This document shows positions 5,931-6,118 of a stretch of 64,000 nt of DNA, one piece after another. The notes beneath the pieces were generated by a model that saw only the letters and a list, made by a program, of their open reading frames with translations, did not search any database and was not told where the DNA came from. This stretch comes from Amphiscolops sp. MND2022 (taxonomy: Eukaryota). The position numbers and the translations under genes were made by a program. The stretch covers positions 62,001 through 126,000 of the forward strand of contig OZ076409.1 in NCBI GenBank assembly GCA_964187785.1, in the 5' to 3' direction. Position 1 is the first letter of the stretch. The number at the start of each line of letters is the position of its first letter.

Positions 5931-6118
5931 CCTTAAAAGGAATAGTCACGTGACTGCCATAAAAGGAAGTGCAATTATTACCTAAAAAGGAAAAATGACG
6001 CAATAGTTTTGAATGACAGAATAAACATTACCTTAAAAGGAAATGACTTCCTTTTATGGAAAACGAGGCGTAAACATTTCCAAATATGGAATAGTCACGT
6101 GACCAAAGTAGTATAAAA
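5931..6118. promoter_or_regulatory. Divergent promoter with six CArG boxes, two GTCACGTGAC E-boxes and a TATA box
   Basis: CC(A/T)6GG at 5931, 5957, 5981, 6031, 6050 and 6080. GTCACGTGAC at 5945 and 6094. TATAAAA at 6112. Confidence 0.75.

Follow-up and report, generated by a model that had tools for sequence, protein, structure and literature searches.

Six perfect CArG boxes, two palindromic E-boxes and a TATA box were found between two divergent genes of a Polinton/Maverick-type element, an arrangement that is probably a compact and bidirectional enhancer-promoter. Judging from its words, we consider it likely, though by no means certain, that this cluster would be read by host SRF together with a bHLH-zipper factor and would drive the replication-side genes of the element. 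Polintons, which are DNA viruses integrated in genomes, are widespread; in the literature searched, nothing was found on what switches their genes on. All positions refer to the window, i.e. the whole stretch of 64,000 nucleotides that was analysed.

Organization of the CArG cluster

The six CC(A/T)6GG boxes listed in the initial annotation were all recovered where they had been placed (5931-6089, between two divergent genes), each of them followed by AA to give GGAA (6/6). The accompanying words were present as well, namely two GTCACGTGAC palindromes (5945 and 6094), TGACGCAAT (5996) and TATAAAA (6112). The cluster had been described as a 190-bp divergent promoter; the flanking ORFs are indeed divergent, but the intergenic region measures 388 bp (5878-6265). 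Its parts are as follows.

5903..5917, minus strand: T/C-rich word upstream of ORF-A, conserved as judged by compatible peptides
5931..5940: CArG box 1, CCTTAAAAGG; E-box 1 begins 6 bp further
5945..5954: E-box 1, GTCACGTGAC, CLEAR-type palindrome
5957..5966: CArG box 2, CCATAAAAGG; with AAGT after it in this copy alone
5981..5990: CArG box 3, CCTAAAAAGG
5996..6004, plus strand: TGACGCAAT, which we take to be a C/EBP-ATF-like word; not conserved
6031..6040: CArG box 4, CCTTAAAAGG; 9 bp ahead of box 5
6050..6059: CArG box 5, CCTTTTATGG, inverted copy of box 2
6080..6089: CArG box 6, CCAAATATGG; E-box 2 begins 6 bp further
6094..6103: E-box 2, GTCACGTGAC
6112..6119, plus strand: TATA box for ORF-B, TATAAAAG

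All six boxes display the SRF-type core CC(A/T)6GG, as defined in sections of PMC10178880. According to the same sections of this review, a MADS site, that of SRF included, spans about 16 bp with A/T-rich flanks, and A-tracts are preferred by MADS factors (mostly plant data). An A-tract core, which is a preferred and not a required feature of SRF sites, was found in 6/6 cluster boxes. Their 3' flanks read AAN in 6/6 cases and NAA in 3/6, and their 5' flanks TTN in 4/6 and TT(A/T) in 4/6. The GTCACGTGAC palindrome, of which the cluster holds two perfect copies, corresponds to the CLEAR motif bound by MiT/TFE factors (PMC7815692, in part); as a word, it would suit MiT/TFE, USF, Myc/Max and other bHLH-zipper factors alike.

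The element carrying the cluster

Genes of the Polinton/Maverick type surround the cluster, in agreement with its initial assignment to a virus-like element.

3..1898, minus strand: PolB (type B DNA polymerase), N-terminal part, bearing C2H2 fingers; disrupted near 300-390 and running off the window
5278..5877, minus strand: ORF-A, 199 aa, conserved across the element family, with a basic stretch
6266..6841, plus strand: ORF-B, PUR/PC4/Whirly-like nucleic-acid-binding fold; in-frame stop at 6674-6676 in this copy
8546..13727, plus strand: packaging/structural block with A32-type ATPase, rve integrase, 447-aa ORF and adenain-like protease

A type B polymerase, a retrovirus-like integrase, a packaging ATPase and an adenovirus-type protease thus occur in one element, as in Polintons/Mavericks and adintoviruses (gene set as described in parts of PMC8502044 and PMC11131425). 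Pfam scores were above cut-off for the integrase (rve, E 1.1e-08) and the ATPase (Pox_A32), and below it for the protease (Peptidase_C5, E 0.0017) and for PolB (DNA_pol_B_2, E 0.0012, below the curated cut-off, on a 92-aa edge fragment). Adintoviruses are defined by a PolB that has an OTU-like domain at its N-terminus, an integrase with a C-terminal chromodomain and a BLASTp-recognisable Hexon (PMC11071296); Pfam detected no OTU on the PolB N-terminus, which carries C2H2 fingers instead, and no chromodomain on the integrase ORF. By position alone, the 447-aa ORF is the probable major capsid gene. In the expected capsid block, nothing relevant to this ORF or to a 228-aa ORF was found in Pfam or PHROGs, and the profile of the 447-aa ORF (1771 homologues, unnamed) retrieved no capsid among PDB sequences. 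The left end of the element lies outside the window. About 14 kb downstream, a second element (element B) is diverged and more broken, with an ORF-A 56% identical to that of the first (element A), and is cut inside PolB.

ORF-A had 1822 homologues, all from ENA among the matches listed. It displayed no Pfam match, weak and unconvincing PHROGs hits and an Atlas score below 0.9; its model reached a pLDDT of 46, and the viral fold search returned none at E 0.001. ORF-B had 680 homologues, likewise all from ENA among the matches listed. Its natural sister P0122 gave a model with a pLDDT of 70.8, whose best match was human PURA (E 7.3e-06), followed by MRP1/2 and Whirly, and the Atlas lead for ORF-B was PC4 (0.88). 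On account of these fold matches and this lead, ORF-B most likely codes for a single-strand nucleic-acid-binding protein.

Several smaller features were recorded in the two elements. A 60-aa ORF with a strong transmembrane stretch (5094-5276, plus strand) belongs to an 80-member cluster. Each of the two elements has a gene end (4104-4337 and 19139-19288, both plus strand) in which an acidic stretch goes together with a KEN motif and a C-terminal motif common to both; the two ends were 55% identical over 51 aa, and the acidic stretch of element B is a long GAT repeat (18750-19115). The product may be an APC/C-interacting cell-cycle protein. Between the EGF-like ORF (see below) and the transmembrane ORF, an AT-rich stretch with short imperfect repeats (4678-5058) may represent either an intron or a further control region. 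Past the protease gene of each element lie GC-rich tandem repeats of 20 and 19 bp (13860-13960 and 27909-28003), which differ in sequence and may be subterminal repeats. Near PolB, the accessory genes carrying cell-cycle motifs are reminiscent of the 'Oncoid' region (PMC8502044, section 3.2). Based on the gene set and on the ErbB-ligand-like gene, the host is probably an animal.

Box enrichment and internal repeat structure

The density of the cluster was compared with shuffled sequence, and the boxes proved to be enriched: 6 were observed for a mean of 0.024, with a maximum of 2, among 20,000 dinucleotide shuffles of the region. Over positions 1-28000, the densest 190 bp never held more than 2 boxes in 200 shuffles, and the whole window contained 20 boxes for 3.98 expected (maximum 11 in 100 shuffles). 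Words of related form were less frequent over 1-28000: CC-W6-GG occurred 16 times, versus 6 for CC-W5-GG, 0 for CC-W7-GG, 3 for GG-W6-CC, 3 for CG-W6-CG and 0 for GC-W6-GC.

These boxes are not six independent events, so that the shuffle test overstates the evidence. Boxes 1, 3, 4 and 6 are spaced by 50, 50 and 49 bp within a decayed repeat of about 50 bp, boxes 1 and 4 share the same letters throughout, and a perfect 14-bp inverted repeat joins box 2 to box 5. Tandem Repeats Finder returned no row for 5800-6300, since the 50-bp repeat is too decayed. Among the four in-register units, 6-10 of the 10 box bases matched; for the last 25 bases of the spacers the figure was 6-13. The in-register boxes differed by A/T exchanges only. 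The initial annotation had noted that the inner bases vary while CC/GG is kept, and had taken this to suggest selection.

Such a structure brings in a neutral explanation, in which a single box, present by chance, was copied through local duplication and inversion without serving any function. The 50-bp register of four boxes and the perfect inverted repeat are what this would produce, yet the spacers have decayed below tandem-repeat detection while the four in-register boxes stayed perfect. Further evidence on both sides is given in the next two sections.

The palindromes could also have been kept for pairing, in a folded single strand or a cruciform, e.g. during strand-displacement replication. 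The region indeed folds at -31.6 kcal/mol (z -6.07 versus dinucleotide shuffles). The z value dropped to -2.07 when the motifs were held and the spacers shuffled (10/300 as low), and the hairpin was rejected on that ground as the main cause of the motifs. Shuffling the core letters too gave z -2.99 (1/300), i.e. a small excess remains, and the stretch around the boxes of element B folds at -14.9 only. Pairing is hence the explanation to which we attach the faintest probability.

Boxes in other intergenic regions

On their replication side, the two elements have four divergent intergenic regions between them. Besides the cluster region, which was left out of the independent count, these are the following.

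1899..2624: second divergent intergenic region, PolB / ORF 2625; boxes at 2176 and 2463, two near-boxes, one CACGTG
15500..17496: intergenic region on the PolB side of element B, with boxes at 15611, 15650 and 16639
20239..20729: region of element B matching the cluster; boxes at 20349, 20567 and 20579, near-box at 20535

Together they held 8 boxes in 3,214 bp for 0.19 expected (maximum 3 in 3,000 shuffles). Boxes were confined to the divergent intergenic regions of replication-side genes, the counts elsewhere being 1 and 0 in the two structural-gene blocks (about 0.4 expected each) and 4 in the remainder of the window (2.4 expected). AA followed the box in 6/8 boxes of the three regions. An A-tract was present in 14/14 intergenic boxes, while 36 of the 64 possible CArG boxes contain one.

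The matching region of element B carries two CCAAT boxes (20368 and 20464) where element A carries E-boxes, and no CACGTG was found in it (20239-20729). It yielded no usable alignment with the cluster promoter. Three boxes accompanied by two CCAAT boxes, with CACGTG lacking, in DNA that does not align: this looks like motif turnover and not like sequence conservation. Neutral duplication does not account for the recurrence of boxes in three intergenic regions that do not align. In the PolB-side region of element B, tandem repeats of about 178 bp were also observed (15721-16530), each with a TGACGTCA-like palindrome.

Retention of the motifs in sister elements, by proxy

Sister elements were compared through a peptide proxy. 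Automatic gene calls often begin far upstream, so the N-terminal extra residues of sister ORF-A and ORF-B calls were read as translations of the promoter. Searches for sister DNA returned no locus from viral contigs (queries ORF-A, 447-aa ORF and ORF-B), nor from metagenome contigs (queries ORF-A and a 20-base motif) or prokaryote genomes. The sister rows listed were all from ENA, so that the records may share one host. Their tree displayed about three lineages (support 100/99, 98/98 and 88/98), one of them poorly supported. By this proxy, the boxes and the box-E-box unit appear to be conserved across family copies, and TGACGCAAT and a full ETS core do not.

Close sisters comprised 45 records that were 74-96% identical, about 90%. 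Four of them (P0001, P0006, P0269 and P0277), whose upstream part is rearranged or shifted, were left out of position counts. The covering peptide was unchanged for box 1 in 36/41 gene calls, for E-box 1 in 30/32, for box 2 in 29/32 and for box 3 in 30/32, and peptides compatible with boxes 4 and 5 were present in both long calls (P0284 and P0287). The window peptide over TGACGCAAT occurred in 0/32 close sisters, and this word was rejected as a conserved site. Conservation among sequences about 90% identical says little: between the window and the main close lineage, 0/12 motif residues differed versus 8/35 others (p = 0.075, not significant), which may be counted in favour of the neutral explanation. 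In P0269 and P0277, upstream peptides showed boxes 4-6 reversed in orientation and fused to box 1, which suggests that in some copies the stretch between the two palindromic E-boxes was inverted.

More distant lineages are 63-69% identical in ORF-A and 56-65% in ORF-B protein. Their 20 distinct ORF-A extensions contained 17 CArG-compatible tetrapeptides for 3.7 expected, and their 23 distinct ORF-B extensions 15 for 4.1, numbers reached in 0/2,000 shuffles in either case. Another 38 extensions, of uncertain lineage and with unreliable identities (many frameshifted calls), displayed 51 for 12.4 expected; 110 of the 149 representatives had no usable extension. A single tetrapeptide is a weak marker, as the control set of 54,272 residues contained 302 compatible ones, of which no more than about 42 can be real. 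The peptide compatible with a box 6 bp from CACGTG, i.e. the box 6 unit, was encountered in 8/11 distant ORF-B extensions of at least 45 aa and, with 7 matches, in 6/38 of the further records, and in none of two control sets (54,272 and 127,238 residues).

Peptides from the opposite strand or second frame, in pairs combining different copies, narrowed the possible encodings. LLIW/PYKE and TKKG/SFFG left a single one, a perfect CArG box, and the pairs FPYKE/FHIR and FPYME/FHIW left two, both with a CArG box (2/2); SFFG/LFW gave one in 4/8. Over the 8 pairs that we chose, 4 allowed CArG encodings only, 1 did so in 1/2 and 3 had none. At the place of the TATA box, distant sisters display RTKA, RIKA or SIKA, which would be compatible with a TATA-like word. 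Peptides compatible with the word at 5903-5917 were found in 40/60 distant ORF-A extensions; this conserved word may be an initiator of ORF-A or a splice acceptor.

The boxes, and the box placed 6 bp from CACGTG, are retained in diverged sister elements as shown by this proxy. A 16-codon (48-bp) repeat of the box-CACGTG unit was observed in four distant records, and a 13-codon one in two. The 48-bp repeat is near the 50-bp register of the window and would again suit neutral duplication, against which stands the recurrence of boxes, by proxy, in lineages 58-69% identical in protein. With its points weighed on both sides, a functionless by-product appears very improbable. Enrichment in the other regions and retention in sisters point to selection on the boxes.

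GGAA words and SRF cofactors

Two routes at least lead to SRF: TCF cofactors require an ETS site adjoining the box and MRTF/MKL cofactors require none (PMC4023608, in part). The initial annotation had read the GGAA words as ETS cores and the cluster as a growth-factor immediate-early promoter. Neither reading was supported. The six GGAA words were rejected as ETS sites, because 6/6 overlap the GG of their own box and fit the A/T-rich MADS flank, and the growth-factor response is one of these routes, between which the sequence does not choose.

A special case of our preferred explanation would nevertheless keep the first route, with classical serum response elements where ETS/TCF binds GGAA beside SRF under MAPK growth-factor signals. 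Boxes 2 and 5, and only these, carry a full GGAAGT core, aimed at the neighbouring box, and an ORF resembling EGF-receptor ligands lies 1.3 kb away. These cores were not kept in close sisters, however: the residue over the box 2 flank was as in the window in 1/32 (different in 31/32), and the box 5 flank differed from the window in both P0284 and P0287. Over the latter flank, distant lineages display GKN and WKY, which by our decoding are not compatible with GGAAGT. The cluster thus lacks the pairing of a CArG box with an adjacent ETS site that marks a classical TCF-dependent serum response element, ETS involvement is unsupported and this narrower case seems unlikely. On TCF spacing, nothing usable was found in PMC2200674. 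ETS involvement keeps some probability, since a title cited in PMC7690695 mentions overlapping SRF and ELK-1 sites in primate cytomegaloviruses.

Candidate readers and proposed mechanism

The boxes might also be operators for a protein of the element itself, e.g. ORF-A, or the ORF-B product acting on the purine-rich strand. The nucleic-acid-binding fold of ORF-B speaks for such a reader, as do the conservation and basic stretch of ORF-A and the A-run lying on one common strand in 5/6 boxes; moreover, PUR proteins act at actin and myosin promoters. ORF-A, devoid of a confident fold, counts neither for nor against. On the other side, the sites agree with two established consensuses of host factors at the same time. 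Within 1-14000, the visible and incomplete part of the element, the 89 frames of at least 55 aa gave no match to a MADS or bHLH domain, and the MADS signature, taken as a crude pattern, was absent from the six frames of the window. An element-encoded reader is accordingly rated as improbable. Enrichment, recurrence, apparent retention in sisters and the lack of a MADS/bHLH domain in these searches make a host SRF-type factor the best candidate.

The preferred mechanism would run as follows. The array would have arisen by amplification of an ancestral unit, about 48-50 bp long and holding two CArG boxes and one E-box, after which selection kept the motifs and the spacers drifted. Host SRF-type MADS dimers would occupy 16-bp sites, each consisting of an A/T-rich flank, CC-W6-GG and a second A/T-rich flank, and a host bHLH-zipper dimer of the MiT/TFE or USF class would sit on GTCACGTGAC next to them. 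Together they would direct RNA polymerase II from the TATA box at 6112 into ORF-B, which in this scheme is a PUR/PC4-like protein and probably a single-strand binding replication factor; in the opposite direction, transcription would enter ORF-A. The PolB promoter would receive the same SRF/E-box input, so that the replication module would be on in cells with high SRF activity, and the structural block would be controlled otherwise. This suggests that the elements rely on a host switch for turning on their replication genes. Of the initial claim that viral early genes are driven by host SRF, the virus-like element and its enriched, recurring and apparently kept boxes stand, and the ETS sites do not; 'early' would here be a label taken from gene content.

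Comparison with known systems

The major immediate-early enhancer of HCMV contains a host SRF site (PMC7690695 and PMC13322095, both in part). Both cases concern a nuclear DNA virus with SRF sites upstream of first genes, the present ones being candidate sites. In the herpesvirus, SRF is one input among many and is paired with ELK-1, whereas CArG boxes dominate here, with six in 160 bp of a divergent promoter, GTCACGTGAC as partner and an integrating Polinton-type element as carrier. Avian retroviral LTRs display CArG and Y boxes, the former being host SRF sites (PMC7601775, in part). Element B likewise pairs CArG with CCAAT boxes, yet the LTR works in one direction with few boxes, in contrast to the internal promoter of a DNA element. 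In muscle genes such as SMYD1, SRF and a bHLH factor cooperate via adjacent CArG and E-box (PMC2790895, in part); the E-boxes of those promoters are myogenic, while the cluster combines a CLEAR-type palindrome at a fixed 6-bp distance with a mobile element.

No statement on CArG boxes or promoters of Polintons was found in the literature searched, and the word 'promoter' was absent from the main text of four Polinton papers. In its working, the cluster would resemble viral enhancers that are already known; it is set apart by an unusual box density and partner site, and by a virus class for which no such enhancer was found described. A conserved code of CArG and CLEAR-type E-box, scarcely present in the structural block, points to two host factors as candidates. 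The prediction is that expression should track SRF activity (wounding, proliferation, muscle lineage) and drop on SRF knock-down. If this is true, the host-hijacking logic of cytomegalovirus and avian retroviruses would extend to an unrelated virus class, and many dispersed six-box SRF enhancers could affect neighbouring host genes.

An EGF-like ORF near the cluster

A small ORF near the cluster provides a testable link to growth signalling.

4497..4643, plus strand: EGF-like ORF, 48 aa, with a six-cysteine EGF module, 1.3 kb from the cluster

This six-cysteine pattern occurred once in the window. Against PDB, the best match was HB-EGF (E 5.4e-06), followed by epigen, betacellulin and neuregulin, and 9 of the best 10 rows were named ErbB ligands, to which the ORF is closest; the Pfam EGF match was below cut-off (E 0.0045). 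One sister copy was found (P0627, 38/43 identical, one cysteine fewer) and none by tblastn in element B; among viral contigs, 4/7 candidate stretches were confirmed and no locus was returned. Upstream of the ORF lies an in-frame hydrophobic stretch with no in-frame ATG ahead of it, so this copy may be spliced or broken.

The ORF is a possible virokine. Poxvirus growth factors such as vaccinia VGF are small viral EGF-receptor ligands, and the ORF, closest to ErbB ligands, may be one too. Poxvirus transcription takes place in the cytoplasm and relies on enzymes of the virus itself, hence the viral promoters do not draw on host factors raised by the ligand; in the present case, a ligand-like gene and SRF-type sites occur together in one nuclear element. 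An autocrine loop can be imagined in which the ligand of the element would stimulate host growth signalling, raise SRF activity and turn on its own replication genes via the CArG arrays. We regard this loop as doubtful. If true, a virokine would be wired to its own promoter within a Polinton, and the KEN-box protein encoded beside the EGF-like ORF would add cell-cycle control. The word 'EGF' had no occurrence in the two papers checked for it.

Other features of the window

An LTR retroelement with strong GC skew occupies positions 29380-47224, and its 422-bp LTRs are 100% identical. No CArG box was found in these LTRs. Its ORFs include one of 2691 aa with RT, RNase H and integrase, and one of 908 aa matching a Monjiviricetes fusion glycoprotein (E 8.8e-23). 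A large and diverged inverted duplication joins 53719-56332 and 60975-63957, on the right side of the window where GC is higher; its two arms are about 70% identical.
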